Part shown: positions 32,977-57,920 of the stretch, piece by piece
Position numbering within the stretch: position 1 is the stretch's first letter
How the letters are laid out: each line of letters starts with the position of its first letter
DNA from: Candidatus Omnitrophota bacterium
GTDB lineage: Bacteria > Omnitrophota > Gorgyraeia > B26-G9
Assembly: GCA_043805415.1 (NCBI GenBank)
Contig: JAZDHZ010000027.1
Location: 71,542 to 135,541, forward strand
DNA length: 64,000 nucleotides
Reading direction: 5' to 3'
Position numbers and translations under genes: made by a program
The notes under the pieces: generated by a model
Told to the model about the DNA's origin: nothing
What the model saw: only the letters and a program-made list of their open reading frames with translations
The model's database searches: none

Positions 32977-32986
32977 TTAGTACCAC

Positions 32987-34291: not shown

Positions 34292-34335
34292 TTTAAATTC
34301 TCCTTTTCTTGTGTTTATATTTCCCCTTGGAAATA

Positions 34336-35473: not shown

Positions 35474-35474
35474 A

Positions 35475-37615: not shown

Positions 37616-38707
37616 CTAAAAATCTCGATATTCGCGGCGAATAAAAAGACCACTTGCTACAGGATCTAAAAATAGTTTTAAGAAATAATTCACGTCTTTT
37701 ACAAATCTACGCGGAACATAAATTATATCTTCTGATTCTAATATCAGGTTATCGCTTAAATCAGCTAGTTTTAAAGCCTTATTTAAATCAAGCCGTTTAG
37801 GCTCAGGTTTTTTCAAACCACCTTTAACTAGGATTACACTCCTAGTGACAGCATCTTCAGTAAATCCACCGGATAAGCCAACTGCTTCTAATATGGTCTT
37901 TCCCGCGGCTAAGGTATATACTCCCGGGCTATTTACCTGACCTAGGATAATAACTCTATTGCCGGCAAAAGTATTCACTGAAACAGATACTTGTGGATAT
38001 TTGATAAACTCACGCAATCCTTGCGTTAAAATTTCAGTAAAATCACTAATTGTCTTGCCAGCAGCTTTAACTTCTCCGACCAAAGAAAAGGATATTAAAC
38101 CGTCAGGACGGACAATAACCTGATCATCCAAATCGGGATTCTGCCAAACCTTGATCCCCAGGACATCCCCATTGCCGATTACATATTTAGAACTACTTTT
38201 TTGGTTTAAATCAGGACTGTTTGGGAAAACACTTAAACTTACTTCAGGAGGAGAAAGTACTGCTTTTTCTTCTTTTTTAATATCAGAAATAGCCTTTTGA
38301 AATTCGTCTTGGGCTTCACTAAACCGCCCCTGATTATAAAGAATCAAGCCTCTTTTATAATGCTGATCATTTTCCTTTTCCGTGGCATGAATTGCTTTTT
38401 GAAATTCATTTTCCGCTTCTTTAAACTTGCCTTGCTCATAAAAACTTAAACCTTTTTTATAATAATCCTGCTTCTCCGTATTTGTTTGAAGTATTGCTTT
38501 CTGAAATTCCTGCTCAGCTTCTTTATACTGCCCGGATTTATAAAAAAAAAGCCCTTTTTGATAATGATCCTCACTCTGAGCTGAATCTGAATCAGCATAG
38601 CCACGCTGCCCAAAGAAACACAAACAGGCAATAACTGTAATTAAGCCGATAAAAAAAGAATGTTTCGAAAACAGCTGATGGGTTTTATTTGCTTGGGAAT
38701 TTTTCAT
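37616..38707 (-). CDS. Polysaccharide export protein (Wza/GumB-like Poly_export + SLBB) with three N-terminal TPR-like repeats
   Basis: 363 aa. Signal/anchor N-terminus. Three tandem ~33-aa repeats (HYQKGLFFYKSGQYKEAEQEFQKAI / DYYKKGLSFYEQGKFKEAENEFQKAI / QHYKRGLILYNQGRFSEAQDEFQKAI). A Poly_export core follows (GNGDVLGIKVWQNPDLD...VRPDGLISFSLVGEVKAAGKT). Last gene of the secretin operon. Confidence 0.65.
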   Translation of the reverse strand: MKNSQANKTHQLFSKHSFFIGLITVIACLCFFGQRGYADSDSAQSEDHYQKGLFFYKSGQYKEAEQEFQKAILQTNTEKQDYYKKGLSFYEQGKFKEAENEFQKAIHATEKENDQHYKRGLILYNQGRFSEAQDEFQKAISDIKKEEKAVLSPPEVSLSVFPNSPDLNQKSSSKYVIGNGDVLGIKVWQNPDLDDQVIVRPDGLISFSLVGEVKAAGKTISDFTEILTQGLREFIKYPQVSVSVNTFAGNRVIILGQVNSPGVYTLAAGKTILEAVGLSGGFTEDAVTRSVILVKGGLKKPEPKRLDLNKALKLADLSDNLILESEDIIYVPRRFVKDVNYFLKLFLDPVASGLFIRREYRDF

Positions 38708-38725: not shown

Positions 38726-41716
38726 TTATTCATTTATAAAACCAGCCTTTTCTTCTCTTAAGCTAATTATTTCCTCTGCCATTACAACTTTTTCGCTTTC
38801 ACTCTTTTCCAGATCAGCTCTTACAGCATTAAGCGTTTTTTCCAAATCTTTTATTTTTAGATTCTGTTCTTTCATTTGATCAAATAGCTTTTGGTATTTT
38901 TCCATGATTTGCTGTTTTTGATTAGATAATTCTGCTATCTGATCAATTACTTCTTGGTTAGAATCTGTCTTAATAGTTGTCTGACTCTGCAGATCAGCTA
39001 TTTTTGCCTGAGCAGCCGCTAATTGAGAAGATATCTCCTGTCTTTGATTATTTGAAGACGCGATTTCTGATCGCAATTGAATTTGCACGCTCTCTTTTTC
39101 TTTTAACAATGCTTCCAGTTGTTTTAATTGTTCAGTTAAAGAGTTAATATCATTGCTGCTTTGTTTAATCTCCGCGAGTTCTGCTACCACTGCTTTACTT
39201 TTACTTGTTAAGTCTTTTTCTATTTTAGCCAGCTCTTCGGCTTTGGCCTGCGCCGCAGAGAGATTAGTTTGGGTATTTTTTAATGCATTTTCTAAAACAA
39301 CTAAATCCTGATTTTTTTGTTTAAGTTCAGCTTCCGCGTTCTGAAACTGATTTTTTAATTGATCATAAGACGCGCGCAACGCATTATTTTCCGCTAATAT
39401 CTCTTTCTGACTGCTTTTCGTGTTTCCTAAATCATTGATTTTTTTAGTTAAAACTTCGATCTCTTTTTGCTTACTTGATATTTGCTTAAGTTGCTCTTGG
39501 GTCTGAGCTGCTAAAGCTAGCTTTTCCTGCATAATCAGCTTTTTATCTGCTTCTAAACTATCGGCTTTAGCTGCTATTGCTTGTTTGCCCTGTTCAACAC
39601 CACTCAGCTGCTTACCCAGCGCGTCTAACTGTTTATTCTGTTCAGCATTCAGCTGGATTAGTTTATTATTTTTTTCTATTATAACTTCAAACTCTTTTCC
39701 CTTGGCTAAAAGATCATTTTTTAATAAGGAAACTGTGTTCTCGACTTTAGCCAAAGATTTATTCTGACTAGCAAGCCCCACATTTTCTTTTGCTAAAGCA
39801 TCAAGCTCTATTCTCAACTTCGCGATCTTAGCTTCCAAATCAGCACGTTCAAGGTTTATTTTAGCAAAATCCTTGCTCATTTTTTCAGATTCAAGCTTAG
39901 AATTATTAAGGTCGGTTTTAAGTTTTTCCTGTTCCAAACTTGCTGTCTGATTTTGTTGTGCAAGATTATCGCGTTTTGAATTAATATTTTTATTTTCTTC
40001 CTCTAATGAAGAGATGTTCTTATTTAAAACAAGTATTTGCGACTCTAAATCTTTCTTAACTTTTTGGGTTTCTTTTAACTGCTGACTCAAATCATCTTTA
40101 ACTTCATTTGATTTTGCGATCAAAGTCTCTAATTCGCTGATTCTTTTTTCTAATTTTTCCGCGGAAGAATTCTTTTTTCCGGAAATAGATTTTTCTTGCT
40201 CCAGCGCCTTATTCGTTTTTTCAAGCATACTATTCTTCGTTAAAATACTATCTTTTTCTTGCTGATTCAAAGCAAGTTCTTTATCAATGCGCGCAATCTG
40301 CGCGTCCTTTTTAATAATATCTGCGTCTTGCGATTTTAGGGTTTGCTTAACTTGGTTTAATTCTGACTGCAGATTTTCAATCTTTTCTAATTCTTGTTTA
40401 TAATCCCGCGCAAGCTTTTCTTTTTCTTTAGCAAGAGCATCTTTTTGTTCTTGCAAACCTTTGCTATTATTTTGAGTAAGCAGAATTTGTTTATTTAGCT
40501 CCTCATTTTTCTTATTTAATCCAGCCAATTCAGCTTCAAGCGTTTGTGTTTTTTCCGCTTTATCATCCAAAGAAGCTTGCATTGCTTTAAGCTTATTCTC
40601 AAGCTGCGCTACAACTTTATCGTCTTTTGCCTGTGTTTCTGTTTCAGCCAAAAACGCTTCTTTTTCTTTTTGGATTTGAGCGATTTGATTTTTTGCTTGC
40701 TCGAGCTCTTGTTTTTTCTGATCAAGCTGAACCTGCATTTGTTTTATCTGCTCAGTTACTTGTCCGGAATCAGCACTTTTACCGGCTAATTCTTCTTGCT
40801 GTTTTTCTAATGTCATAATAATTTGTTCAAACAACTTATTCTCGAGAACAATCTTTTGTTTTTCACTTTCTTTAAGCCCAAGGTCTTCTTCGGCTTTTTT
40901 AATATCATGCTGCAATTGTTCTTGTTTTTTATTTTGCGCTAAATTGCTTTCATTTACTTTTCTTAGCGCTTCCTCTAAATTATTCTTTTCCGCTTTAAGG
41001 ATTTCATAATGCTCAAGCTGATCCCTAATAGATAATGCCGGCTTTTCCTCATAAGCTTCTTTTTTAGCTCCAAACAAACCTCCTAAAAAAGTATTATCGC
41101 TAGTTACTACCGGTTTAATCGTGACATCTTTTTTTTGATATAAATCTATCAGCTCTTGTTTGACAACTAAAAGTTCTTCTGCTAAAGATTTTTTCTCATT
41201 ATTAACAGTTTCGATCAAAACCTGGTCTTGCTGCAGCCGCTCATCTTTATTTATTAAAGTTAGTTCTAATTGTTTTATCTTCTGAAACAGCTCTTCTTGG
41301 GGCTTGTTCTTTTTCTTTAGCTTGGCATTAGCCTTTTCTAATTTATCCTGAAATTCTTTTCTTTCTTTTTTTATTCTTTTAATCTCGTTTTGTAATAATT
41401 CGTTTTCATTATCTAAACGTTCACTGTCATTGATTATTTTTCTAGCATCTTTACCTGAATCGCTTTGCTTTGGGATTTCGCTTAACTCTTTTTTAATTAT
41501 AACTCCAGCCGGATTTTCACTCGCATGCAGCACTTGTCTTGCTTTTTCAAACTCAGTCTGAGCTTCTTTATACTTACCCAGTTTATATAATTCCTGAGCT
41601 CTAATATAATGCTTATCATATTCTTGCGAATAAGCAGAAGCTAAATTACAGAAAATAAATACAACTGCGCATAAAATCACACTTAAAACTATGTTTCTTT
41701 TTTTAAAGCTAAGCAT
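38726..41716 (-). CDS. Giant secreted coiled-coil protein (996 aa) with N-terminal TPR-like motif
   Basis: Signal peptide (MLSFKKRNIVLSVILCAVVFIFCNLASA). One TPR-like unit (YIRAQELYKLGKYKEAQTEFEKARQV) paralogous to the Wza-like N-terminal repeats. About 900 aa of uninterrupted K/E/Q/L-rich heptad coiled coil. No ATPase head domains. Confidence 0.5.
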   Translation of the reverse strand: MLSFKKRNIVLSVILCAVVFIFCNLASAYSQEYDKHYIRAQELYKLGKYKEAQTEFEKARQVLHASENPAGVIIKKELSEIPKQSDSGKDARKIINDSERLDNENELLQNEIKRIKKERKEFQDKLEKANAKLKKKNKPQEELFQKIKQLELTLINKDERLQQDQVLIETVNNEKKSLAEELLVVKQELIDLYQKKDVTIKPVVTSDNTFLGGLFGAKKEAYEEKPALSIRDQLEHYEILKAEKNNLEEALRKVNESNLAQNKKQEQLQHDIKKAEEDLGLKESEKQKIVLENKLFEQIIMTLEKQQEELAGKSADSGQVTEQIKQMQVQLDQKKQELEQAKNQIAQIQKEKEAFLAETETQAKDDKVVAQLENKLKAMQASLDDKAEKTQTLEAELAGLNKKNEELNKQILLTQNNSKGLQEQKDALAKEKEKLARDYKQELEKIENLQSELNQVKQTLKSQDADIIKKDAQIARIDKELALNQQEKDSILTKNSMLEKTNKALEQEKSISGKKNSSAEKLEKRISELETLIAKSNEVKDDLSQQLKETQKVKKDLESQILVLNKNISSLEEENKNINSKRDNLAQQNQTASLEQEKLKTDLNNSKLESEKMSKDFAKINLERADLEAKIAKLRIELDALAKENVGLASQNKSLAKVENTVSLLKNDLLAKGKEFEVIIEKNNKLIQLNAEQNKQLDALGKQLSGVEQGKQAIAAKADSLEADKKLIMQEKLALAAQTQEQLKQISSKQKEIEVLTKKINDLGNTKSSQKEILAENNALRASYDQLKNQFQNAEAELKQKNQDLVVLENALKNTQTNLSAAQAKAEELAKIEKDLTSKSKAVVAELAEIKQSSNDINSLTEQLKQLEALLKEKESVQIQLRSEIASSNNQRQEISSQLAAAQAKIADLQSQTTIKTDSNQEVIDQIAELSNQKQQIMEKYQKLFDQMKEQNLKIKDLEKTLNAVRADLEKSESEKVVMAEEIISLREEKAGFINE

Positions 41717-41738: not shown

Positions 41739-43418
41739 TCAGTTCCCCATTAATAGTTCGATTTCTTTTTTTAATTTATCTGCTTTAATTTTATCTTCTG
41801 AAGTGTTTTCCTGTTTTTTAAAACGCTCAACCATATTTTCTTGCAAAGTGATATTTAACTGTGTTGAGCGGCTTAGATCTTCCAATGTTCTTTTTTGACG
41901 TTGCTGAATATCCACAAGCTCTTGTTGTTTTACTTGAAATTCCGCTTTTAATATCGCCAGTTCGCTTTTCAGGCTTAAGATATCTTTATTCTTAGCGATA
42001 ATTTCTTCTTCCCTGCGCGATAAAAGCTCGCTCATCTGAAGCATCTGGTTCTTCAGGTTAGAATAGAGCATATTGGCATTGTTAAATTCTTTATCTTGAT
42101 AGAATCCGCGTTCTTCTAAACTCTGTTTTGCCCTAGCTAATGCCGCTAACTCTTCATCTTTTCTTTTTAATGCCGATTCCTTATCCACCAAGGAATCATT
42201 AAGCATCTTAATTCTATCTTTAAGCAAAGCATATTGTCTGGCTTCAGTCGCCCCTTCGGGAAAAGATAAATCTGATCCGGCTTTAAGCGTCTTTTCTAAT
42301 TCACTAATTCTCTGTTTGGATGTTTCCAGTTCAACTTCCTTACTCATTAAAAGTTCTGAAAATTTAACTACCTGGGCTTTAGCTGTATCATAAAGAGCAT
42401 AAGCTTTGTTTAAATCTGGTTGCCCTGATTTAAGCGGAACCTCACCAATGGGTGGTAATATATCCGCAAAGGAATCTTTCTTCAAGGCATTAATAATTTT
42501 TTCTTGTTCTTTTAATTTTTTCTCAGCCTCGGCGAGATCTTGTTCCGCCAAATCTCGCTCGCTTTCGATTTTCTTGATATTACGCGCTTTTCTCTGTACA
42601 TCTAATAACTCTTCTTCAAGACTTGCTATTTTTTCACTTTGAAGATTTAATTTTTCATTTATTTTAGACCTTGCGCTGCTAAACTGGACAACCTCTCTGT
42701 TGAGCGAACTTCTTTGCGATTCTTTTTCTTTGAGCTGGCTGCGTAAATCATCAATTTGCGCTTTTAATTTATCATTCGGAGTTTGCGCTGATATCTTTAA
42801 TGCTTGCTCTAATTTAGTCTCAACTTTTCCCATTTCCGTTTCAAGCTTAGCTATTTTTTTTTCTAGAATTTTTTTCTCTTTATTCGAGTTAGCATTTTCC
42901 TGAACAAGATTTTTAATCTCGCTGTCTTTTTCTTTTAATAATTTATCAGTTTTCTCTATTTTTTCTAAATAGCCGCGAATTGTCTTATCGCTTTTCGTGG
43001 CATTTAACTCATCTTTAACCTCTTTCAAGGTTTCCAAAGTTTTAGTAAATTCGCGAGTAAGGGAATTTACCCGATTATTTAGACTTAGATTTGATTCCTG
43101 CAAAGAATCCTTTTCTTTTTTAACTTGCGAATATGAAACGTCAAGCGTTTGAAGTTTTTTTTCATTTTCCGCATATTGTTCTTTAATATTTTTTACATCT
43201 GACAGCCCAGCAAGTTCTTTTTTAAGTACTGAGATCAGCGTTTCTTCTTCGTTTTTTTCAATAGTTAGAGCTACTTTTTCCTTAAATAATAATTCAGCAC
43301 GCTTTGCTAATATTTCCGCTCTATTTTTCGTTTCGATAAAGCGGAATACAAAAAATATAACTCCGCCTGCTACTAATATTAATAGGAAAAACGCTATTCC
43401 TTTTAAGAATTTACTCAT
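41739..43418 (-). CDS. Membrane-anchored coiled-coil protein (559 aa)
   Basis: N-terminal TM helix (IAFFLLILVAGGVIFFVFRFI) followed by a long heptad-repeat coiled coil. Confidence 0.45.
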   Translation of the reverse strand: MSKFLKGIAFFLLILVAGGVIFFVFRFIETKNRAEILAKRAELLFKEKVALTIEKNEEETLISVLKKELAGLSDVKNIKEQYAENEKKLQTLDVSYSQVKKEKDSLQESNLSLNNRVNSLTREFTKTLETLKEVKDELNATKSDKTIRGYLEKIEKTDKLLKEKDSEIKNLVQENANSNKEKKILEKKIAKLETEMGKVETKLEQALKISAQTPNDKLKAQIDDLRSQLKEKESQRSSLNREVVQFSSARSKINEKLNLQSEKIASLEEELLDVQRKARNIKKIESERDLAEQDLAEAEKKLKEQEKIINALKKDSFADILPPIGEVPLKSGQPDLNKAYALYDTAKAQVVKFSELLMSKEVELETSKQRISELEKTLKAGSDLSFPEGATEARQYALLKDRIKMLNDSLVDKESALKRKDEELAALARAKQSLEERGFYQDKEFNNANMLYSNLKNQMLQMSELLSRREEEIIAKNKDILSLKSELAILKAEFQVKQQELVDIQQRQKRTLEDLSRSTQLNITLQENMVERFKKQENTSEDKIKADKLKKEIELLMGN

Positions 43419-43428: not shown

Positions 43429-44580
43429 TTACTTTAGGTTAACATCATTATAGATATCATGAATATATATAGAAAAATTTTTACTTAAATCAACTGGCTT
43501 ATTTTGAAGTAATTTTTGCCCATGCGCGTCATGTGTCACTTTAATAACAGGCCTAAGCGGCATCTTTGGGTTTTGGCTTGATACTTTGGCGATTTCCTTA
43601 GTATTAAGCCGAATTATTGTATTTAATGGAAATATACCCACGCAATCAATCAAGGTCTTAAGAAATTTAGGCTCGAATTTATTTTTTTCATTTATAAGAT
43701 CTTTTATTATTTTTAGATACCCTAGTTTTTTTCTATAAGGCCTGGCATGATTCATTGCCTCATAGACATCCACAACCGCGATTAGTCTGGCATATTCACA
43801 TATTTCTTTATCTTTTAATCCGTACGGATATCCTGAGCCGTCAACACGCTCATGCTCTTGGTGAATAACATCAAAAATTTCAAAATCTAAATCTTGAGCG
43901 ATTTTTTTTAAAACATCTTTACCTAAAATTGGATGTTTCTTAATTTCCCAAAAATCATTATCACTGAAACGCGCGGGACGACTGATAAGATTATCAAAAT
44001 TTATCAGGCCAATGTCATGAACAAGCGATGCTAATCCAATTTGTCTAAGACGAGTATGATCATAATTTAAGTCCATTGCCAGCCGCAAACAAAGAATGCA
44101 GACATTTACAGAATGCTGATAAATATACCCCTTTTCAACAGAATACTCCGTGAAAAAAAGTCTTAGTAATTGATTTGGATCATCTTTGAGAAAAGCAATA
44201 AACTGTTTAATTATATCTTCTGCTGCAAGAAAACAGCCTTTTTGCCCATTATCCAAAGGGTTCATTATTCCCTGGACAAAAGAAATTGCCCTTTGATACG
44301 CATCAACTACCTGGGCAGGTTCAGCCTCAGCTTTTTCCTCAATCTCTGAAAAAGTTTCCTCAGTCTTGTCCTGATCAGCAACAACAGTCTCTTGCTGGAT
44401 TACCTCAGGTTCAAGCGGCTTAATTTCAGTTTTTTTTATCCTTAACTCAGGGTTTATTTCTTGCGCTTGCGGCTGTTTTAATTCAATATCAGGAGCAGGC
44501 CGCTCAGATGCCTGAGCCTTACTTACCTTACTCAGCCTGTTTTTTTTTGCCTTTTTAAGAATATCAGATATTTTTAGCAT
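43429..44580 (-). CDS. HD-GYP domain phosphodiesterase (stand-alone, no receiver domain)
   Basis: 383 aa. Low-complexity acidic N-terminus. HD motif (LASLVHDIGL) and the diagnostic HHERVDGSGYPYGL (HD-GYP) motif. Confidence 0.75.
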   Translation of the reverse strand: MLKISDILKKAKKNRLSKVSKAQASERPAPDIELKQPQAQEINPELRIKKTEIKPLEPEVIQQETVVADQDKTEETFSEIEEKAEAEPAQVVDAYQRAISFVQGIMNPLDNGQKGCFLAAEDIIKQFIAFLKDDPNQLLRLFFTEYSVEKGYIYQHSVNVCILCLRLAMDLNYDHTRLRQIGLASLVHDIGLINFDNLISRPARFSDNDFWEIKKHPILGKDVLKKIAQDLDFEIFDVIHQEHERVDGSGYPYGLKDKEICEYARLIAVVDVYEAMNHARPYRKKLGYLKIIKDLINEKNKFEPKFLKTLIDCVGIFPLNTIIRLNTKEIAKVSSQNPKMPLRPVIKVTHDAHGQKLLQNKPVDLSKNFSIYIHDIYNDVNLK

Positions 44581-44629: not shown

Positions 44630-45259
44630 CTATTGTACTGGTGATTTTTCTTTGCTGATAAATGTAAAATCCTCTGATTCACTGGGAGCTTTTTGTTGAC
44701 TTAAAACACCGCGCATTTCGGTCATATTCTCGTCAATTTCTCCGCGCCAGAAAACAATCTGTCCATTTTCTGAGCTTTGCATAGTTTCCCAAATCGTCAT
44801 TCCATTCTCTTTTATGGTTAAAGTATAATTTGTCGCTGTAAAACCTTTATCACTAAACTGCTGCGAGTAAAATTTATTGTCCTTAAAAATCAGATCATCT
44901 TTTCTGATTTTTCCGCCTCCAGCTATAGGAAAAATCTCGGTATTCCAGCTGGTATTATTAAGATTTTTTCTTACTTTTTCACTCAATGCTTTTGCTTCAA
45001 TTTGTGAAAGATTTGCTTTCTCCTGTGAAGCAACGGGTTTTACTGATTTTTCTTGGGTTACTGGTTTTACTGGTTTTTCCTGGATTACTGGTTTTTCTTG
45101 GATTACTGGATTAGCTTGTTTTTTAGACTCCACCTGAATTTCTTCTGTTTTTTCCTCAGGAGTATCAGATTTTTTCTTACCCCACAAGGCATGTCCGTTT
45201 TGCGCTGTGCTGATTACAAATACTGCGATTAAAACCATACAAAACACTGCTTTTTTCAT
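44630..45259 (-). CDS. Secreted protein with PVIQEK/PVKPVTQEK tandem repeats
   Basis: 209 aa. Signal peptide (MKKAVFCMVLIAVFVISTAQNGHA). A hexapeptide tandem repeat region, then a C-terminal globular part. Confidence 0.4.
   Translation of the reverse strand: MKKAVFCMVLIAVFVISTAQNGHALWGKKKSDTPEEKTEEIQVESKKQANPVIQEKPVIQEKPVKPVTQEKSVKPVASQEKANLSQIEAKALSEKVRKNLNNTSWNTEIFPIAGGGKIRKDDLIFKDNKFYSQQFSDKGFTATNYTLTIKENGMTIWETMQSSENGQIVFWRGEIDENMTEMRGVLSQQKAPSESEDFTFISKEKSPVQ
45040..45125. repeat. Short tandem repeat, period about 18 bp (coding; PVIQEK units)
   Basis: The 18-bp unit ggattactggtttttc(c/t)t recurs consecutively on the plus strand inside gene 44630-45259. Confidence 0.5.
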
Positions 45260-45286: not shown

Positions 45287-46261
45287 TTATTTAGCGCCTG
45301 CTTTTCCTTCCCAAGTCTGCCAGGTAAGGATATATCTTTTAACCCAATCAACGTCTTCATCTTCTTTTTTAGTTAACATCAGGAATTTCTGAAACCGATC
45401 AATTGCCTTTGGTCTATCTTCGACATATTCCGCGTAAATAAACCCCAGATTAAAATAAGCTTGCGGGTCATCAGGATTTAATTCAATCGCTTTTTCAAAC
45501 TCAGAAATTGCTCTGGGATATTCTTTATTCTTTGTGTAAAAAACACCCAGGTTATAATGCATAAGGGCTGTCCGCTTTATTAATATTTTATTTTCTCTGG
45601 CAATCTCAGCATATTCCTTTGGCTGACGATTGATTTTGTTTTCTAGCTTTTTATTCGTAGCTACTGATTTCTTATACTTTAATTTTACTTCTTTTATTTG
45701 ATCTCTTAACACCCCGGCTGTTGCTTCCGCCTTAGCTGCTTGATCCACAGACTTTTCAACTTCTTTTTGTATTGTCTTCAGATTGTTCTCAAGCCGAGAT
45801 ATCTCTTTTGCCTGTTCTTTAATTTTTCTATTTAAATCCTCAACAATGATATAGCCAGCTTTGGATTTTGAAAGAGTCTTACGCAATAAATCCCTTTCTT
45901 CCTGTAGCTGAAATTGATCTGCTAATAAATTATCTATTTTAGTTAACAGCTGTTCATTGCTCGCCTGGAGCCGATTGTTAGTACTTTTAAAGGTTTCTTT
46001 TTCCATCTCCCATTGGGCCCGTTCAGCCTCAATTAAACTCAACTGCTCTTTGGCTTGAGTTATTTCATTTTTGTATTGCAAAAGAATCTTCATCTGAGCT
46101 AGTAAATTTTCCCTATCGGTTACAACAGCCTCATATTCTTTCTTTAACGTGCTATAATCTTTATTCGCGTCAGGTTCTCCCTGAGCCTGGCCAAAAGCAA
46201 TTGCTGGCAACAACATCATCACACAAAAGCACACTAGCTTAATTGATTTCATTTTATTCAT
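45287..46261 (-). CDS. Secreted coiled-coil protein with C-terminal TPR repeats (PilF/PilW-pilotin-like), partner of secretin 1
   Basis: 324 aa. Signal peptide (MKSIKLVCFCVMMLLPAIAFG). A ~200-aa coiled coil. C-terminal TPRs (HYNLGVFYTKNKEYPRAISEFEKAIELNPDDPQAYFNLGFIYAEY). Its start overlaps the secretin 1 stop by 8 nt. Confidence 0.5.
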   Translation of the reverse strand: MNKMKSIKLVCFCVMMLLPAIAFGQAQGEPDANKDYSTLKKEYEAVVTDRENLLAQMKILLQYKNEITQAKEQLSLIEAERAQWEMEKETFKSTNNRLQASNEQLLTKIDNLLADQFQLQEERDLLRKTLSKSKAGYIIVEDLNRKIKEQAKEISRLENNLKTIQKEVEKSVDQAAKAEATAGVLRDQIKEVKLKYKKSVATNKKLENKINRQPKEYAEIARENKILIKRTALMHYNLGVFYTKNKEYPRAISEFEKAIELNPDDPQAYFNLGFIYAEYVEDRPKAIDRFQKFLMLTKKEDEDVDWVKRYILTWQTWEGKAGAK

Positions 46262-48071
46262 CCTTTAAAGGTTTTAGTGTTGGATAATATGCCTCAGCAT
46301 CTTTGTATTCCGGATATTCTTGATACAATTTTGGTTCTATTTTATGTTGTTTTTCAAACTCAGTCAAATCAGATTCGGTTGTCATTAGATTATAGTCTTT
46401 ATATCCCTTATCCTGATCAATCCCAAAATCTCGTTTATCTCCAGTATCTAATTTGTCTCCTTTTATAATATGAGCCGTAACCATAATCAGTAATTCGCTA
46501 CGGCTTGACCCCTTTGTCCCGGATTTAAACAGCATTCCCAAAATAGGGATCTTTCCTAAAAACGGTACTTCCTGAGAATTATCCGATTTTTCTTCACGGC
46601 ACAACCCGCCAACTGCCACAGTTGCCCCATCTTTTATCATTACGGTTGTCTCTGCAGTTGATGAATCAACAATTGGAATTCGGTTATTTTGCGCTGTGAG
46701 CAAAGTTCCGATCACACTACTTAGATCAGGCTTTATTTTTAAAGTAACATATCCTTCATCATTAATTGTCGGAGTAATATGAAGCTGTAAACCAACATCT
46801 AAAAAAGTTACCTCTTCAGAAACCGTAGTTGTTGTCTGCCCGGCAGTAGTGGTTGTTGTAATATAGGCTTGCCGCTCACCTACATGAATACGCGCCTCCT
46901 GATTATTTGTAACCGCAAGTTTAGGATTGGACAGAATTTTAACAGTCCCTAATGTCTTCAGATACTTTAACATAACATCATAATCATTATTACCCACTAC
47001 TCCAATATGCATTTCACCTGTGCCCACAGTTGGCACACTTGAAGCATAATCAGAAGTTGTTCCGCTAAAAGGGTACGATCCAATATTTCCGGTATCACTA
47101 AGCACCTCAGCTCTTGAACGCCATGCAGCAGTAGTGCTGTTTACCGATGCCAGCGGGGTAGAGCCAAGATAGCTTGTATTCCCGTCTTTATTCGCTAATT
47201 CAAACAGCCCCTCCCATTCAACCCCTTGGCTTAAATCATCAGTAAGCTTTATTTGAATTATTGTGGACTCAATCAATACTTCCCGAGTCTTTTGATCCAG
47301 TTTTTTAATAATCGCTTCAATATCTATCATTCTCTCAGGTAAAGTCTGAACAATAAGCTGATTCGTCCGTTCATCCGCCTTTATCGATCCCACTTTTTTC
47401 ATATCCAGCTGAGTCTTAAGCTGCTTTTCAATATCCTTCGCATTCGCGTACTGCAAATCAAAAACTCTTATCGTACTTTTGAATTCTAACAATTCCAGGG
47501 TTTTAGTTATTTCCACTATTTTTTCTGGTGTATCAAGCACAAGTATGGTTCCGGAATCAGCCTCAACTAATACTTTGCCAATTGTACTTTTTATCGAATC
47601 AATTATGGTATAGGCTTGATCGGGTATAACATATTTCAGGTGAAACACTTTTACCTGACGGATATCATCAAAGCCTTTTCCATAGCGCTGTTTGTATTCT
47701 TTTTCCGTCATTACATTAAAAATTGAACCTATTTTTTCATAAGCTAAACTATTTGACCTGATAACAATCTCAAATATATCTTCCACAGCCGCATCATTAA
47801 TCATTAAAGTTATTCGGCCGGAAACCTCTTTTGTCGGCACAATATTCAAATTAGCTTTTTGGGCAATATATTTAAGAGCATCTTTAACTTCAATATCCCG
47901 CAAGTCAAGAGAAATCAATTCTTTAGCAACCATAAGATTTGAAACAGCCACAGGATTAGCTGCTACTGCCGAGGCATACTCACGTAAAGCTAAAGCAGTT
48001 CCAACAGTATATAATATTGTAACTGTGAAAAAGAAAATAGTCAAAAATATAATAAAAATATATTGTTTCAT
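46254..48071 (-). CDS. Secretin (GspD/PilQ family), paralog 1
   Basis: 605 aa. Signal peptide. Secretin_N/STN domain (ISLDLRDIEVKDALKYIAQKANLNIV). C-terminal secretin domain (ARIHVGERQAYITTTTTAGQTTTTVSEEVTFLDVGLQLHITP...TVMIKDGATVAVGGL...VPFLGKIPILGMLFKS). Confidence 0.8.
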   Translation of the reverse strand: MKQYIFIIFLTIFFFTVTILYTVGTALALREYASAVAANPVAVSNLMVAKELISLDLRDIEVKDALKYIAQKANLNIVPTKEVSGRITLMINDAAVEDIFEIVIRSNSLAYEKIGSIFNVMTEKEYKQRYGKGFDDIRQVKVFHLKYVIPDQAYTIIDSIKSTIGKVLVEADSGTILVLDTPEKIVEITKTLELLEFKSTIRVFDLQYANAKDIEKQLKTQLDMKKVGSIKADERTNQLIVQTLPERMIDIEAIIKKLDQKTREVLIESTIIQIKLTDDLSQGVEWEGLFELANKDGNTSYLGSTPLASVNSTTAAWRSRAEVLSDTGNIGSYPFSGTTSDYASSVPTVGTGEMHIGVVGNNDYDVMLKYLKTLGTVKILSNPKLAVTNNQEARIHVGERQAYITTTTTAGQTTTTVSEEVTFLDVGLQLHITPTINDEGYVTLKIKPDLSSVIGTLLTAQNNRIPIVDSSTAETTVMIKDGATVAVGGLCREEKSDNSQEVPFLGKIPILGMLFKSGTKGSSRSELLIMVTAHIIKGDKLDTGDKRDFGIDQDKGYKDYNLMTTESDLTEFEKQHKIEPKLYQEYPEYKDAEAYYPTLKPLKDE

Positions 48072-48082
48072 GGGTATAAAAA

Positions 48083-50293
48083 TTATTTAACATTTTCCTG
48101 CGCACCCCAGATAAGCAAATATTCCTTTGCTTTCTGCGCATCCTTATCATTAGGAGCCAGAGCAAGATAATGCTTGAAATGAGAAAGCGCTTTTAATTCA
48201 TCAATCAAATATCTTGAATATATAATCCCCAGATTATAATGGGTACTAGCATCCCGATCATTATACTTTAAAGCGTCTTGAAATTCCGACACTGCTTGTG
48301 TGTATTCCTGGCGCTGCGCGTGAAAAACCCCTAAGTTATAATGCAAAGAAGCATTCTGTGAACGCAAATCGCTTAATTCTTTCTCCTGCTTTGATAACCG
48401 CTCCGGCAGGGACTTTATCTGAAGATCAAGATTCTTGTTTTGAGTATCAAGATCACTAATATTCCGCTTCAGCTCATCTATACTATCTGAATATTTAGCG
48501 ATTAACTTAATCTGCTGGTCTTCTTTTTTCTGCCAATCACGCTCTTTTTTATAAAAAATCTGGACTTGTTTAGCTAAACTATCTTTATCTTTTTCAAGCT
48601 TTGCCTGAACCTCTTTCAAAGTATTATATTTATTTTTATTCTCTTCGAGCTGGTTAAGATAGTTTTCTTTATCCTTGTTGGAAAGTTCGTTTTTCTTTTC
48701 CAGTTCTCCGGCAAGTCCTCTAAATTCCTTTAACTCTTCACTCAACTTATTTTTATTCTCTTCCAATTTTACAATATAATCCTGTTCCTTATCCCTAACC
48801 AGCTGCTCAGTAAGATTAAGCTTCTTATCTTTATCTTCTACCTGCTTTTTATAATCCGCGACCAGTGATAGCAGTTCCAGATTTTCATTGGCCATTTTAT
48901 TGTTTTTCTCTTTTAGCATCGTAAGCTCTTCATAGGACTTATTTAAAATCTTATTAAGATTGGTAAATTCGGTTTTAAGGAAATCTATCTCATCATTGGC
49001 AACCTGGATCCCTCCTGCTTCATTAGGATTTAAGCCTTTTGCCGGATCGCCCTTACCATCTAAACTGATTAGTTTGAGTAAAAGCTGTTTTTTCTCATTT
49101 ACCAATCTATCATTTTGGTTCATCAGGTTTTCGTTTTTCTTTCTCAGGTCTAACACATTTGCCTCAAAACTCTTATTACTTTCCGACACCAGTATCTTTT
49201 GCGCTGCTCTTTGCTGCAAAATCTCCTCATCTTTTTGCTGGATCAAAGCCTTCTGGGAAATAATTTGGGCATCTTTATCCTTCACCTGCTGCGCAAAAGA
49301 TTGCAAGTCTGCTTCATACAGCTCTTTCTGATCAGTATATTCTTTACTGTTTTCCTGAAGTTTTGCCAACTCTTCTTTTAGCGATTTTTCTTTCTGAATG
49401 TATTTTTCTGTATAATAGAGTTCCATTTGCTGCAATTGTTCTTGAGCAACCGAGAGTTGTTTTTCTTTTTCCGCGAATTGTTTTTGCGTCTGCGTAAGCT
49501 TATTCTGAAAATCCTGATTATCTGCCTCTATTTGCTGATTTCGATTAACAATAGTCTCGCCTTCTTTTTTCACAAGGATTAATTCATCTTTTAAAGATTT
49601 TTCCCTTTGCTGCATAGCCTCAAGCTGTTTTATGGTCTCTTGCTTTAAATTAGTCAGCTGGTCATTAAACGCTCTTTCTTTTTTATCCAATGTATCTTTA
49701 AGTGTTATTATTTGTTCTGACTGATCTTGATTCTGCTTGGCATATTTTTGTTCAGATTCAGTTTTTTTCCTATTATCTTCTTTAAGCGTTTCCGTTAGTT
49801 TACTTAATTCAGCGATTTGCTCAGTTTCTTTTTGTGATTTCTGAGCATAGTATGCTTCTTTTTTCTCAGAATCTTCCTTTAATCTATTATAATTATTCTT
49901 AAGCTCAGCTTTATTCTCTTCTAATGTACTTATGGCCACTTGCGATTTTGTAAACAGCTGATCTACATTATTAAGCTGCTGTCTGAGCGAAATAATTTCC
50001 CCTTCTTTTGCCGCGATAGCCTGCTCTTTTAAGGCCATCTGTTCGCTAAGAAAATCGTGTTTTGATTTAACCTGTTCATATTGCTTGCTTAAATCATCAT
50101 AAGCCTGCTGCTTAGTTTTCAGATCTTTTGCTAAATTCCCCATGTCTTTAGCGATTTTTTCCACCACACTTGAGACCTCTTCAGCAGCATCCTGGCCTTG
50201 AGATACTGAGCAAACAGTAAGACTCAAAGTAAATATCAGTGCAGAAATAAGCCCCCCACTTCCCCCTATTCCTTGCCATCGAATTTTTTTCAT
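48083..50293 (-). CDS. Secreted coiled-coil protein with C-terminal TPR repeats, partner of secretin 2 (paralog of 45287-46261)
   Basis: 736 aa. Signal peptide. About 600 aa of coiled coil. C-terminal TPRs (LHYNLGVFHAQRQEYTQAVSEFQDALKYNDRDASTHYNLGIIYSRY) nearly identical in pattern to the 324-aa paralog. Overlaps the secretin 2 stop by 4 nt. Confidence 0.5.
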   Translation of the reverse strand: MKKIRWQGIGGSGGLISALIFTLSLTVCSVSQGQDAAEEVSSVVEKIAKDMGNLAKDLKTKQQAYDDLSKQYEQVKSKHDFLSEQMALKEQAIAAKEGEIISLRQQLNNVDQLFTKSQVAISTLEENKAELKNNYNRLKEDSEKKEAYYAQKSQKETEQIAELSKLTETLKEDNRKKTESEQKYAKQNQDQSEQIITLKDTLDKKERAFNDQLTNLKQETIKQLEAMQQREKSLKDELILVKKEGETIVNRNQQIEADNQDFQNKLTQTQKQFAEKEKQLSVAQEQLQQMELYYTEKYIQKEKSLKEELAKLQENSKEYTDQKELYEADLQSFAQQVKDKDAQIISQKALIQQKDEEILQQRAAQKILVSESNKSFEANVLDLRKKNENLMNQNDRLVNEKKQLLLKLISLDGKGDPAKGLNPNEAGGIQVANDEIDFLKTEFTNLNKILNKSYEELTMLKEKNNKMANENLELLSLVADYKKQVEDKDKKLNLTEQLVRDKEQDYIVKLEENKNKLSEELKEFRGLAGELEKKNELSNKDKENYLNQLEENKNKYNTLKEVQAKLEKDKDSLAKQVQIFYKKERDWQKKEDQQIKLIAKYSDSIDELKRNISDLDTQNKNLDLQIKSLPERLSKQEKELSDLRSQNASLHYNLGVFHAQRQEYTQAVSEFQDALKYNDRDASTHYNLGIIYSRYLIDELKALSHFKHYLALAPNDKDAQKAKEYLLIWGAQENVK

Positions 50294-52107
50294 TCTAAAT
50301 CCTCTTTTTGGAGTTCAATAAAAGATCTTTTGTATGGTTTAAAACTTTTGATTTCCATTCCGCCCAAATCACTCGCCGACGGAGGAGGTAAATATGTTTG
50401 CTGCTCCTGTTTTATTCTATCCACCAGCTCATAATTCTGAGCTGGTTTTATCCCTGGATCCCCAATCATATCACCGTCTGAGGAAACCATTACCTCTCCG
50501 CTTATAATCGTAGGGGTAATCATAATTAATAATTCAGTAACATTTTTAGTATCATTTGTTTTCTGGAATAAAAGGCCGAGTATCGGAATACTGCTTAAAA
50601 AAGGAACTCTTTGTTTAGTTTGCGATTTTTCTTCTCTCCGTAATCCTCCGAGAACAAGCGTTGCCCCGTCTTTAATTAAAGCATTTGTTTCCGCTAAAGA
50701 AGTATCGACAATCGGAATATTATTGCCGGTAGGAGTAACTAAAGTCTGAATTACACTGCTAACCTCAGCCTTTATCTTTAAATCCACAAACCCGTCTTCG
50801 TTAATTCTCGGCACAACATCCATTTGAATACCAATATCGATAAACTGCACATCTTCCGATATTGTACTGGTAGATTGTCCGGTAGTTGTGGTTGTGGTAA
50901 CATATGCCTCACGCGCGCCCACGTGAATTCTTGCTTCTTGATTATTGGTTACCGCGATCTTCGGATTAGATAAAAGTTTTGAAGAAGTAACAGTTTGAAT
51001 ATAAGTTAAAACCATATCCAAATCATTACCACCGATAATACCCACATGCATTTGATTAAGACCAACGATACTGTTACTGCTATTATAAACCGATGTGGTT
51101 CCACTAAACGGATATGAACCAACATTGCCAACATCTTCGTAAACCTGCCGGCGGGAACGCCAATCAGCAGTTGCTGAGCCAACAGAAGAAAATGGAGCAG
51201 AGCCGATATAAGTCAGGCTGTTTGAATCTGAAGCGGCATCAAACAGCCCCTCCCATTCAATCCCTTTATCCAGCGCGTCAGATATCTTGGACTTTACAAT
51301 TTTAACATCAATTAAAACCTGTTTTGTTTTTTTGTCCAAAGCTTTGATCAATTCCGCGATTTCTTCCATTCTTTTCGGAAAGGTCTGGACAATCACTTGA
51401 TTACTCCGCTCATCGGCTTTAATTGATCCCACTTTTTTCCCGGAAAGCCTCTGATTTAAAGTCTCTTCCACAGTCTTAGCATTAGCATAATCCAGCGTAA
51501 ATACCTTTACAATACTTTTTTGTTCAAACTGTTCCAGAAGTTCTTCCATGCGCACAAGATTTTCTTTTGAATCCATACAAAGAATATTTCCCGATTCCTG
51601 ATCAACCAGTATTCTCCCTACTTCACTTTTAACAGCATCAAGCAGATTAAATGCCTGTTCCGGGATCGCATAATTAAGATGAAAAACTTTTACTTTTCGG
51701 ATATCGGAAAAACTTTTTCCATAGATCACTCTATATTCTTCTTGAGTCATAACATTATAGATATCGCCTATTTTATCATAAGCTAAGCCATTTGACCTAA
51801 GCATGATATCAAATACATCCTGTACCGGAACATCTTCAACCACTAAAGTTATCCGTCCCATAACAGATTTTGTGGTTACAATATTAAGTCCGCTTTTTAA
51901 GGAAAAATATTTTAAGGCATCATTAATATCTATTTTTCTTAAATCCAATGAGATTAACCCATCAATGCCCTTGGTTAAAGCCATAATCTTAGGCTGGGGT
52001 GGCGCAATCAAAGCGGTTCCGCTCCCAGCATCTTGTGCTGATAAATAATTAATCTTAAACAGGATAACAATGACAATTAATCCTATTCCAATATTTTTTT
52101 TCCTCAT
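50290..52107 (-). CDS. Secretin (GspD/PilQ family), paralog 2
   Basis: 605 aa. Same architecture as paralog 1 (ISLDLRKIDINDALKYFSLKSGLNIV; ARIHVGAREAYVTTTTTTGQSTSTISEDVQFIDIGIQMDVVP; LIKDGATLVLGGL...VPFLSSIPILGLLFQK). About 55-60% identity by eye. Confidence 0.8.
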   Translation of the reverse strand: MRKKNIGIGLIVIVILFKINYLSAQDAGSGTALIAPPQPKIMALTKGIDGLISLDLRKIDINDALKYFSLKSGLNIVTTKSVMGRITLVVEDVPVQDVFDIMLRSNGLAYDKIGDIYNVMTQEEYRVIYGKSFSDIRKVKVFHLNYAIPEQAFNLLDAVKSEVGRILVDQESGNILCMDSKENLVRMEELLEQFEQKSIVKVFTLDYANAKTVEETLNQRLSGKKVGSIKADERSNQVIVQTFPKRMEEIAELIKALDKKTKQVLIDVKIVKSKISDALDKGIEWEGLFDAASDSNSLTYIGSAPFSSVGSATADWRSRRQVYEDVGNVGSYPFSGTTSVYNSSNSIVGLNQMHVGIIGGNDLDMVLTYIQTVTSSKLLSNPKIAVTNNQEARIHVGAREAYVTTTTTTGQSTSTISEDVQFIDIGIQMDVVPRINEDGFVDLKIKAEVSSVIQTLVTPTGNNIPIVDTSLAETNALIKDGATLVLGGLRREEKSQTKQRVPFLSSIPILGLLFQKTNDTKNVTELLIMITPTIISGEVMVSSDGDMIGDPGIKPAQNYELVDRIKQEQQTYLPPPSASDLGGMEIKSFKPYKRSFIELQKEDLE

Positions 52108-52775
52108 CGCACTTCAACCTCTTCACCTTTATAACGCAAAATAACTCTATCTTTTTGAATGTCATAAACTTTGATATCATCAATCATATAACCCTTTTTA
52201 ACAAAATATGTTTTTTCCAATTCAGGGTTTTCGATTATCGCGTCCGGGTCATCGCCCCAGGAAATACCGACTAATTTCAGATTCTTAGTTAATTCTGCAA
52301 GCGGAGAAACCTTATTTTCCTTTTCTTCTTTAAAATCAACTTCTTTTCTTTTTACATATCCCATTTGAAAAAGATCTCTAACTTCAGCTTTTTGCAAATA
52401 ATACTCTTTTGGCTTTAAAAGTGAAATTGTCTCCGGAGTTTCACTAATTACATTTGCTTGGGCATCTTTACCCACAAGCAACGAAATCCTGTCTGAACCT
52501 TTAATTTCAATACTTATAAATACCGCTAAAGCAACTATTGCGATCCCAATCGCGCATTGCAAAAACAGATTAATCATCTTTAAATCTTGAAATACGCTTT
52601 TATCTGCCCCCCGCCGCTTATGACTAAAACTGTCTTTTAAAAAAGCGATTCTCGCGCGAAAAGACCCAAAGGATAGATATTTGTTTCCCATCTGAACCGG
52701 AGAAGGCATAGCGATCTTATTAATTTTACCTTCAATAATCTCTAATAAACGCTTTTCCGGTGTTTTTTCTGCCAT
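52104..52775 (-). CDS. Bitopic inner-membrane protein, possible GspB/ExeB-like partner of the ExeA-like ATPase
   Basis: 223 aa. ~60-aa cytoplasmic N-terminus, a single TM helix (INLFLQCAIGIAIVALAVFISIEI), and a ~130-aa periplasmic domain. It overlaps secretin 2 by 4 nt. The topology resembles GspB/PilN/PilO-class proteins. No sequence-level assignment. Confidence 0.3.
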   Translation of the reverse strand: MAEKTPEKRLLEIIEGKINKIAMPSPVQMGNKYLSFGSFRARIAFLKDSFSHKRRGADKSVFQDLKMINLFLQCAIGIAIVALAVFISIEIKGSDRISLLVGKDAQANVISETPETISLLKPKEYYLQKAEVRDLFQMGYVKRKEVDFKEEKENKVSPLAELTKNLKLVGISWGDDPDAIIENPELEKTYFVKKGYMIDDIKVYDIQKDRVILRYKGEEVEVR

Positions 52776-52793: not shown

Positions 52794-53654
52794 TTAAACA
52801 ATTACACTTGGCTGTCTGACCCAATGCAATCCTTGTTGAATTTCTTCTTCCACGATTTCTTTGATTAAATCCTCATCAATAACAAATTTATTTCTCATAA
52901 CCAAACGTTTTAGCGCCTTATGACAGAGCATATTCATCCGTCGAGGATACCCCCTTGTGTTTTGATAAATCGCTTTTATTGCTGTATCTAAGAACAGATG
53001 CATATTGGATTTATATCCAGCTTGCCGAATGCGATACTCGATCATTTTGCGAGCTTCGTACTCATCCAAAGGATTTAAGGTAAATTTAAAACTTATTCGA
53101 TCAATAAAATTCGGGATATTAATCAATTTTGAGTGCAATTCCATTTGTCCCAATAATACCAGCTGGAGTAATTTATATTCATTGGTCTCATAATTAAGCA
53201 AAACCCGCAAACACTCTAGGGTCAGTTCATTTAACTTTTGCGCTTCATCAATAATCAGCACAATGGTTTTTCCTTCTTCAACCCCTTTTTGGAATAAAAA
53301 TTTTTCCAATGCCTCTTTGAGGTTAAGAATCCTCGGCCCCTCTTTAGCCACTTCAATATCAAAATTACGCGCAAGCGAAGTAAGAAATATTTCTTCATCA
53401 TTGTACACAGGGTCGAGCATCATATGACAAATAAACCCTTCCTGTGATTTTATCAGCTGATAAAGTTTACGGCTAAGCGTTGTCTTGCCAGTTCCGACAT
53501 CGCCTAAAATAACTCCTAGCCCGCGTTTAAGCCGCAGTTCAATCATTAAATTAGTTAAAGCCATGTCATGCTCTCTTGATTCATAAAAAAACATTGGGTC
53601 AGGACTTGTTGAAAAAGGCTCTTTATCAAATCCTAAAATTTTATAATAGCTCAT
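52794..53654 (-). CDS. ExeA/GspA-like AAA ATPase (general secretion pathway protein A family)
   Basis: 286 aa. Walker A GDVGTGKTT and Walker B VLIIDEAQ, in the AAA_16/AAA_22 arrangement characteristic of ExeA. No C-terminal peptidoglycan-binding extension. First gene of the operon. Confidence 0.65.
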   Translation of the reverse strand: MSYYKILGFDKEPFSTSPDPMFFYESREHDMALTNLMIELRLKRGLGVILGDVGTGKTTLSRKLYQLIKSQEGFICHMMLDPVYNDEEIFLTSLARNFDIEVAKEGPRILNLKEALEKFLFQKGVEEGKTIVLIIDEAQKLNELTLECLRVLLNYETNEYKLLQLVLLGQMELHSKLINIPNFIDRISFKFTLNPLDEYEARKMIEYRIRQAGYKSNMHLFLDTAIKAIYQNTRGYPRRMNMLCHKALKRLVMRNKFVIDEDLIKEIVEEEIQQGLHWVRQPSVIV

Positions 53655-53804: not shown

Positions 53805-54080
53805 TTAAGCATTATCCAACATTTTCGCGATAATTTTTAAAGGATATCCTTTACCCTTTAACTCATCAATTTTATTTAAGTTGGTTTCCACCTCAATAGC
53901 TATATAAAAACGCTTATTGCCAAAACCTCTTTTTCTAATAGCATTAAGCAAACCAAAATTTGTATAGTGATTCAATGTCTGATAAGAAATATTATACTTT
54001 CTTACCACGTCCATAGCAGTTATAATTTCATCCATTTGTACCTCGTAATTTATAAAGACACCAACTCCATTTTCAGACAA
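53805..54080 (-). CDS. Small MerR-type HTH DNA-binding protein
   Basis: 91 aa (or 76 aa from the internal Met). HTH resembling MerR N-domains (ISYQTLNHYTNFGLLNAIRKRGFGNKRFY). No effector domain. It sits just upstream of the secretin operon on the same strand. Confidence 0.4.
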   Translation of the reverse strand: MSENGVGVFINYEVQMDEIITAMDVVRKYNISYQTLNHYTNFGLLNAIRKRGFGNKRFYIAIEVETNLNKIDELKGKGYPLKIIAKMLDNA

Positions 54081-54244
54081 TCATACCCATCCTGGGAAAG
54101 GCGGGAATATTTTTTACAAAAATATGAATAAAAAATATATTTTTAAACATTTTGATAATAGCATATATGGTAACTATTGTCAAGTAATATAGTCTAGTAA
54201 AAATTAAATATAAAAAGCAAGAAAAAACAAGCATTTAAAGGCCT

Positions 54245-57912: not shown

Positions 57913-57920
57913 ATAAAACT

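Follow-up and report, generated by a model that had tools for sequence, protein, structure and literature searches.

A pair of tandem secretin units on the minus strand of a 64,000-nucleotide stretch of Candidatus Omnitrophota DNA (contig JAZDHZ010000027.1, positions 71,542 to 135,541; the whole stretch is hereafter called the window) lies within a 12-gene cluster that runs from a MerR-family regulator gene to a gene of the OPX family, and in each unit the secretin gene is followed by the gene of a coiled-coil/TPR protein, here called its partner. On balance, and by a small measure of preference, we read this region (45287-52107) as the core of a conserved Omnitrophota envelope operon encoding two separate channels, with one inner-membrane adaptor and with a TPR helper of its own for each channel.

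Secretins are normally studied singly, as the port of a pilus, a type II secretion system (T2SS), a type III secretion system (T3SS) or a phage. In this uncultured phylum of ultra-small, probably host-dependent bacteria, the retention of two adjacent paralogous secretins with private helpers of a type unseen in other systems, and with no filament motor in the operon, constitutes a natural experiment on the coding of secretin specificity (same N0, different tails), on the roles of non-lipoprotein accessory proteins, and on whether secretins can serve the export of exopolymers or fibres. The operon is also a compact conserved marker for Omnitrophota envelope biology and bears on the predatory or parasitic attachment that has been proposed. 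Literature searches (Omnitrophota or Omnitrophica with secretin; tomography; paired or hetero-oligomeric secretins) returned no account of it.

Two intact paralogous secretins

The genes of the two units are the following.

50290..52107, minus strand: secretin A (unit 1), 605 aa; Pfam Secretin and Secretin_N
48083..50293, minus strand: partner 1, coiled-coil/TPR protein, 736 aa; from its translation, with a C-terminal TPR
46254..48071, minus strand: secretin B (unit 2), 605 aa; Pfam Secretin and Secretin_N
45287..46261, minus strand: partner 2, coiled-coil/TPR protein, 324 aa as the longest open reading frame; from its translation and an AlphaFold2 (AF2) model

All four open reading frames were recovered at the minus-strand coordinates given in the initial annotation, with both secretins at 605 aa. 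Secretin A, secretin B and partner 2 are 100% identical to the NCBI proteins MFH1062322.1, MFH1062320.1 and MFH1062319.1, respectively, of a Candidatus Omnitrophota metagenome-assembled genome (MAG).

Both secretins belong to the Secretin superfamily, scoring 154.6 bits (secretin A, E 2e-45) and 161.5 bits (secretin B, E 2e-47) against Pfam PF00263 (cutoff 27.5), and 73.7 and 72.8 bits against Secretin_N, which matches two stretches in each. The matching secretin motifs described earlier are thus present in both copies as far as Secretin and Secretin_N are concerned, but the Pfam STN/N0 matches stay below threshold (24 and 23 bits vs 28.4). Alignment of the paralogues gave 54% identity over 529 aa with only 4 gaps, which bears out the proposal of a module that was duplicated and then diverged. 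By region, identity amounts to 63% in N0, 49-60% in the ring domains and 60% in the barrel, and to 16% in the N-terminal leader and 18% in the C-terminal tail.

Secretin A is composed of a signal peptide, N0, two ring-building Secretin_N domains, a beta-barrel and a tail, and secretin B has its parts in the same order; both are intact, non-lipidated channel subunits. A check for disabling truncations found neither copy truncated, and the candidate explanation of a disabled copy was rejected, since both proteins keep their full length and every domain, in the window as in 30 other species. In the AF2 model of the secretin A monomer (predicted local distance difference test score, pLDDT, 72), an N0-like fold (residues 51-129) is followed by two ring-building units of beta-alpha-beta-beta-alpha topology (138-197 and 199-257), a barrel with long beta-hairpins (263-535) and a tail that is disordered save for a helix at 560-572. 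Foldseek searches with secretin A returned T2SS secretins first (PulD, GspD, ExeD; E ~1e-27), with InvG and PilQ close behind.

Across species the tails are kept within each secretin clade and differ between the two clades: the motif ..FGGMxIKGFKxY.. characterizes the tail of the secretin A clade, and ..YQ[ED]YPE[FY]K..YYPTIKPLKDE-COOH, at the very C-terminus, that of the secretin B clade. The densest set of residues conserved across both clades is found in N0.

Conservation and age of the pair

Related loci were collected by a scan of one genome per species with the conserved end of partner 2 as query, yielding 50 loci in which open reading frames were called and matched to the window proteins; 32 of these have enough upstream sequence to be informative. 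In the complete chromosome CP070807.1 (L047) the region upstream of the short-partner gene is masked by a run of N, which would hide any secretin genes there.

Both units are present in the same order in 30 of the 32 informative Omnitrophota species loci. In these, the consensus order is [MerR] [ExeA-like] GspB/C-like - secretin 1 - variable partner - [MerR] - secretin 2 for the 5' part, continued by short partner - p209 - [second ExeA-like] - HD-GYP - coiled coil(s) - OPX for the 3' part. Two units in this order were likewise found in the contexts of homologues at 84%, 59%, 57% and 55% identity. Named close homologues come from Omnitrophota or PVC-group MAGs, a few of which are labelled Deltaproteobacteria or Planctomycetia.

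In a neighbour-joining tree of 73 secretins, the first-position and second-position proteins form two clades with parallel internal branching, and the secretins of L056 and L049, the loci with a single unit, branch near the root and outside both paired clades, L049 without a firm placement. Between the two paralogues, the core distance matrices are correlated (r = 0.83). The two copies in the window share 58% nucleotide identity overall and 40% at third codon positions, and no 90-nt stretch exceeds 77%. Judged from the position-specific clades, the correlated matrices and the low third-codon identity, there was one ancient duplication, followed by vertical co-inheritance across Omnitrophota. 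A recent duplication, gene conversion and an assembly artefact were considered and rejected on account of the nucleotide identities and the recurrence of the pair in independent assemblies.

In about half of the dual loci, partner 1 and secretin 2 are set apart by a MerR-family gene of 75 aa and a gap of ~220 nt (for example L034:7944-8171, L005:14717-14944 and L026:7982). In these loci p209 is followed by a second ExeA-like ATPase, which shares 30-35% identity with the first; both this ATPase and the MerR gene between the units are missing from the lineage of the window.

In the distant Omnitrophota MAG L056 (L056:10975-18780, and L056:6320-10900), a single ExeA-like/GspC-like/secretin/coiled-coil-TPR unit directly precedes the gene of a 2601-aa signal-peptide protein, a repetitive coiled coil with no Pfam domain, followed in turn by a p209-like gene. 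In the single-unit locus L049, a protein with a weak Rotamase_2 (peptidyl-prolyl isomerase) match is encoded right after the coiled-coil/TPR gene (L049:10846-11814). A Rotamase_2 gene is also part of a separate Omnitrophota gspD/E/F locus that precedes giant genes (10.1101/2023.11.21.568195).

The coiled-coil/TPR partners

As noted before, the partners share their C-terminal TPR end, and their similarity is limited to these last ~133 aa (35% identity, E 1e-23). Partner 1 comprises a signal peptide, a coiled coil of ~600 aa with a Gly/Pro hinge at residues 413-428, and the C-terminal TPR; it has long stretches free of Pro and Gly, and a heptad periodicity above random. The AF2 model of partner 2 (70 homologues, mean pLDDT 86) consists of a signal peptide, a helix (32-132), a loop and a second helix (140-244) that runs straight into a TPR domain of 2.5-3 repeats (248-323). 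With this model, Foldseek returned only generic small peptide-binding TPR domains (designed CTPR3, CHIP, Hop) and no full-length analogue. By arithmetic at 0.15 nm per residue, the two long helices of partner 2 would span ~15 nm as a hairpin and ~29 nm end to end; partner 1 of the window (736 aa) would, if extended, reach ~80 nm, far more than the periplasm.

Across 30 species, partner 2 measures 305-360 aa (29 loci; median 325, standard deviation 12) and partner 1 376-1628 aa (median 928, standard deviation 280), the two being near-equal in L023 (376 vs 314), L044 (378 vs 328) and L035 (399 vs 325). The suggestion of two channels with different periplasmic reach does not survive this comparison, the length of partner 1 not being conserved, and the same range led us to reject its coiled coil as a periplasmic ruler. 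The 2.3-fold ratio between the partners and the equal lengths of the secretins, which the initial annotation had pointed out, proved to be local accidents that vary across the 30 dual loci, in which the orthologous secretins measure 568-623 aa (first position) and 571-648 aa (second position).

No conserved lipobox cysteine was found in the signal peptides of either partner family (~45 orthologues), and the partners were therefore rejected as classical lipoprotein pilotins of the PilF/PilW/Tgl, GspS/AspS or TadD kinds; the PilW and Tgl models match the partner TPR end weakly (23-34 bits vs cutoffs of 154 and 225). The partner 1 TPR ends form a monophyletic, derived and faster-evolving clade (mean distance 0.53). 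Those of partner 2 are closely alike among themselves and to the partners of single-unit loci, which carry the partner-2 motif DWVKKYILTWQTWEGK. Since partner 2 resembles the single-unit partners in its TPR end and partner 1 is derived, unit 2 looks like the conservative copy, similar to its single-unit relatives, and unit 1 like the diverged one.

Operon organization

The remaining features of the cluster are listed here in the order of transcription.

54155..54183, minus strand: sigma-70-like promoter match, TTGACA-17-TATTAT with TG extension; a consensus match only, the best in the region
53805..54080, minus strand: small MerR-family helix-turn-helix regulator, first gene of the cluster; Pfam MerR_1, E 1e-7
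52794..53654, minus strand: GspA/ExeA-like AAA+ ATPase, 286 aa; Pfam AAA_22, E 7e-18
52104..52775, minus strand: GspB/GspC-like bitopic membrane protein, 223 aa; Pfam T2SSC, E 3e-5
44630..45259, minus strand: p209, exported protein, 209 aa; signal peptide, conservation across loci
43429..44580, minus strand: HD-GYP protein; Pfam HD_5, E 1e-22
41739..43418, minus strand: coiled-coil protein, 559 aa, with N-terminal membrane anchor; translation, periodicity, conserved position
38726..41716, minus strand: coiled-coil protein, 996 aa, with signal peptide; translation, periodicity
37616..38707, minus strand: short OPX (Wza-like), last gene of the cluster; Pfam Poly_export, E 3e-23, and SLBB

The promoter match just upstream of the MerR gene, which keeps its first position in orthologous loci, is the probable start of the operon. 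No strong minus-strand terminator-like site was found between 53675 and 37616, and no RNA families were found in the window besides two tRNAs.

The stop of the GspB/C-like gene overlaps the start of secretin A via ATGA, and partner 1 is separated from secretin B by an 11-nt spacer. As for the overlaps reported within the units, the one of 4 nt between secretin A and partner 1 stands (an ATGA, with GAGGA 6 nt upstream), and the one of 8 nt between secretin B and partner 2 exists only from the first ATG, the second ATG (46252; M4) leaving a 1-nt gap. Because this second ATG has AAGGA 8 nt upstream and is the start both in the NCBI record (P0121/MFH1062319.1) and in orthologues, translation of partner 2 most likely begins there and yields 321 aa; the two genes are tightly coupled whichever ATG is used.

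Putative adaptor protein and ATPase

The 223-aa GspB/C-like protein has a cytoplasmic N-terminus, one transmembrane segment and a putative C-terminal HR domain. In the window it scores 24.3 bits against T2SSC (cutoff 27); among 28 orthologues, 22 match T2SSC (PF11356; best E 7e-9) and six T2SSB (PF16537). A profile of the family matches the HR domain of GspC in PDB 3OSS, a structure with GspD N0-N1 (E 8e-4). A motif in the cytoplasmic N-terminus, SPEKxLLxxIE, is conserved in the family and could be a contact site for the ExeA-like ATPase.

In the translation of the ATPase, Walker A (GDVGTGKT) and Walker B (LIIDEA) are intact. The protein has no transmembrane or peptidoglycan-binding domain as GspA/ExeA proper would, and is of the short ExeA/MshM/TIGR03015 kind; it scores 181.6 bits against NCBIfam TIGR03015 (XrtA/PEP-CTERM-associated), for which the cutoff is 324.5.

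Genes downstream of the units

The p209 gene always comes directly after unit 2 and is conserved in nearly all loci; conserved parts of its product are the motif A-[FLW]-W-G-K-K-K, which comes straight after the signal peptide, and a C-terminal domain of ~110 aa, and no relatives were found by sequence search in Pfam, NCBIfam or PDB. The HD-GYP protein, a genuine member of its family (HD_5, 80.9 bits; HDIG and HERVDGSGYP motifs intact) that is conserved in the cluster, is a putative cyclic di-GMP (c-di-GMP) phosphodiesterase. The 559-aa coiled-coil protein, conserved in position, has only SMC-like coiled-coil matches. The 996-aa protein has one TPR-like repeat near its N-terminus and no Pfam family, and varies in presence and length by species.

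In the OPX protein a lipobox-like signal (VIAC) is followed by three TPR-like repeats, then by Poly_export (82 bits) and a single SLBB; the protein scores 119 bits against NCBIfam TIGR03027 (cutoff 180). It ends ~30 aa past the SLBB with a conserved Pro-containing motif and, as far as sequence tells, no long D4-like amphipathic helix, which makes a membrane-spanning helix of the D4 type doubtful. The TPR-like repeats at its N-terminus (YxxGxxxYxxGxYxEAxxEFxKAI) are of the same type as that at the N-terminus of the 996-aa protein and resemble the TPR ends of the partners.

Working model and alternatives

In the model that we favour, each secretin would build a gated homo-oligomeric ring of its own in the outer membrane, and both rings would dock via their nearly unchanged N0 onto the single upstream GspB/C-like HR protein, as conservation suggests. 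ExeAB/GspAB help secretins to assemble, and by analogy the HR protein may pair with the GspA/ExeA-like ATPase in the assembly of these. The paralogue-specific tail would be a putative handle, comparable to an S-domain, that is gripped by the TPR of the protein translated next. The coiled coil of partner 2, of fixed length across species, may act as a structural strut, and that of partner 1, free in length, would more likely belong to a lattice or fibre than serve as a ruler. The HD-GYP protein and the short OPX could point to a surface product under c-di-GMP control (a polymer, a fibre or an adhesion structure), which is a guess.

In partial Mantel analyses with barrel divergence controlled, tail and TPR co-vary slightly more strongly in cognate pairs (0.43 and 0.37) than in non-cognate ones (0.30 and 0.27), which speaks for the model, but the difference of 0.12 is borderline (bootstrap 95% confidence interval -0.005 to 0.25), and a preference for cognate pairing is suggestive only. 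Several further points weigh against the model. The physical contact between TPR and tail is something that we infer, and ring composition cannot be read from a sequence. The operon contains no inner-membrane platform, no pilin and no obvious cargo; the ExeA-like ATPase lacks a true GspA peptidoglycan-binding domain; the partners are not lipoproteins, which makes the analogy with pilotins a loose one; and the AF2 models are of monomers, with a modest predicted template modelling score (0.42-0.43) and tails of low confidence.

The first alternative draws on the textbook knowledge that a pilus or pseudopilus normally opens a secretin: the two secretins would be ports shared with two type IV filament systems encoded elsewhere, such as type IVa pili and a T2SS/Tad-like system, and the operon would be no more than a module that assembles and anchors secretins. 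We consider this unlikely. It would agree with secretin scores just under the PilQ and GspD cutoffs, with the GspA/B/C-like genes, which are T2SS accessories, and with the type IVa pilus genes reported in most Omnitrophota (PMC10066038). However, no pilin, GspE/F or PilMNO gene is present in the 64-kb window, nor in any of the 50 loci up to 10 kb from the match, and what the operon retains instead includes an OPX, an HD-GYP protein and a number of coiled-coil proteins. A separate Omnitrophota gspD/E/F + rcpC locus with pilins, which adjoins giant genes, moreover has a secretin of its own (10.1101/2023.11.21.568195), which suggests that the secretins of the operon do more than serve that system as its port.

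Lower in probability than such ports is a hetero-oligomeric pore, in which the paralogues would co-assemble into one mixed ring, for example of alternating subunits, with both partners decorating a single channel. Strict co-occurrence, a shared operon with coupled junctions, the parallel evolution of the paralogues, the well conserved barrel cores (60% identity) and the preservation of both secretins in 30 of 30 dual loci would all fit it. Vertical inheritance alone, however, predicts parallel trees, the single-unit relatives L049 and L056 imply an ancestral secretin that was homo-oligomeric, and in about half of the lineages the units are set apart by a MerR gene and ~220 nt, a hint of separable expression. 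We know of no characterised hetero-oligomeric secretin, and a literature search for the phrase found none. Separate rings are the simpler reading, given these single-unit relatives, the tail and partner that each secretin has for itself, and the gap with its MerR gene.

Carrying the same low probability as the mixed ring is a more far-reaching version of two separate rings: a self-contained and hitherto unrecognised envelope machine, known to date only from Omnitrophota-labelled genomes and a few MAGs labelled otherwise, in which two strut-tethered rings, fed by the GspB/C-like and ExeA-like proteins and controlled by c-di-GMP, would export a non-pilus product with no pilus or pseudopilus, either a polysaccharide passed on by a short OPX without a membrane pore of its own or the giant coiled-coil proteins of the operon itself, which would form host-attachment fibres or a veil on the cell surface.

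Least probable of all is that the secretins serve as a nozzle, either for polysaccharide delivered by the short OPX, which would have no membrane-spanning helix of its own, or for the Sec-exported coiled-coil proteins of the operon, as a surface layer or fibres. In favour of it, the OPX gene is always last and encodes Poly_export with a single SLBB and an end ~30 aa later, the ATPase and the OPX both have their best NCBIfam matches among exopolysaccharide families of the XrtA/PEP-CTERM kind, the HD-GYP gene is conserved in the cluster, coiled-coil lengths vary as widely (up to 1628 and 2601 aa) as those of surface fibres often do, and secretins have been reported as necessary for slime secretion in cyanobacteria and Myxococcus (PMC12475490). 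Against it, genes for a glycosyltransferase, a flippase, a polymerase and a PCP are all missing from the operon, both NCBIfam matches are well below their cutoffs, contact between OPX and secretin would be conjecture, and the absence of a D4 helix is judged from sequence only.

Relation to known systems

No NCBIfam secretin subfamily reaches its cutoff with secretin A or B. The closest is PilQ (TIGR02515, 242 and 250 bits vs 284), and GspD (TIGR02517) scores 239 and 230 bits (cutoff 351), MshL (TIGR02519) 156 and 177 bits (cutoff 250) and SctC 131 bits (cutoff 238).

The likeness to the T2SS (Aeromonas ExeABD; PulD-PulS-PulC HR, PDB 6HCG; GspC-HR/GspD-N0, PDB 3OSS) lies in the genes of an ExeA-like ATPase and a putative HR-domain protein directly before a secretin, in the succession of N0, ring domains and barrel, and in the best structural matches, which are T2SS secretins. 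Unlike in the T2SS, the ATPase has no transmembrane or peptidoglycan-binding domain; the secretins have two ring domains after N0 rather than the three of the GspD architecture N0-N1-N2-N3; there are two secretins; and the accessories are coiled-coil/TPR proteins instead of a GspS/AspS lipoprotein. GspE-M genes and pseudopilins are missing from the operon, and of the gspC-M and pseudopilin neighbourhood of GspD only GspA-like and GspB/C-like genes occur in the window and the 50 loci.

The MSHA pilus genes mshK-mshL-mshM-mshN encode a PilP/HR-like protein, a secretin, a short ExeA-like ATPase and a TPR protein. The operon resembles them in that four matching protein types adjoin, with an ATPase devoid of a periplasmic domain, and in the link to c-di-GMP. 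It differs in the MshL scores, the gene order and the lack of mshE/G and pilins, and its TPR domain belongs to a protein that also has a long coiled coil and that was duplicated together with the secretin.

With PilQ and its TPR pilotins (PilF/PilW/Tgl), the secretins share the closest NCBIfam family, the provision of a TPR protein for a secretin, and the weak PilW/Tgl matches of the partners. They remain below the PilQ cutoff, however, and have no AMIN domain in Pfam; no pilMNOP neighbours are found in the window or the 50 loci; and the partners are mostly coiled coil, with no lipobox.

The T3SS secretins InvG and MxiD are similar in their domain count (N0, N1, N3, barrel and a helix-bearing tail) and in having a C-terminal handle for a dedicated helper, but they are distant in sequence, as the SctC score indicates; the operon has no injectisome genes, and the fold of its helpers is different.

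The XrtA/PEP-CTERM loci (TIGR03015, TIGR03027, the TPR lipoprotein PrsT) and the short-OPX/beta-barrel translocons of Myxococcus provide the best matches of the ATPase and the OPX, and have in common with the operon TPR proteins and a short OPX with one SLBB. The scores are nevertheless below cutoff, and the operon lacks exosortase, PCP, kinase and glycosyltransferase genes. To our knowledge, neither the XrtA/PEP-CTERM nor the Myxococcus short-OPX systems use a secretin.

In the slime nozzles of cyanobacteria and Myxococcus, secretins are likewise needed for the export of a non-protein polymer and have lineage-specific accessories, but these are canonical PilQ or GspD proteins of a pilus or T2SS, with no coiled-coil/TPR partner and no tandem pair (PMC12475490).

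The secretins, the putative HR-domain adaptor, the ExeA-like ATPase, the TPR domains and the OPX are of known kinds; the paired arrangement, the coiled-coil/TPR helpers and the missing filament motor match no family tested.

Surrounding genes

Galactose-1-phosphate uridylyltransferase-like proteins of 326 and 373 aa are encoded by neighbouring genes at 55898-57999, and L001 and L003 have the same tandem conserved upstream of the operon. Immediately past the last gene of the operon, 31795-36134 encodes LexA and a Y-family (IMS) polymerase, then an extracytoplasmic function (ECF) sigma factor paired with a zf-HC2 anti-sigma factor. Farther along the window there are a catalase-peroxidase gene (21792-23984), a DUF3999 and DUF2339 membrane-protein pair (7695-11500), two radical-SAM genes, one with a B12-binding domain (4688-7633), and a gene for a DUF748 protein (2848-4557). 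GC skew is negative in every 2-kb window from 1 to 64000, and the minus strand carries nearly every gene; the uniform skew and the strand bias suggest a position of the entire window on a single replichore, its genes being co-oriented with replication.

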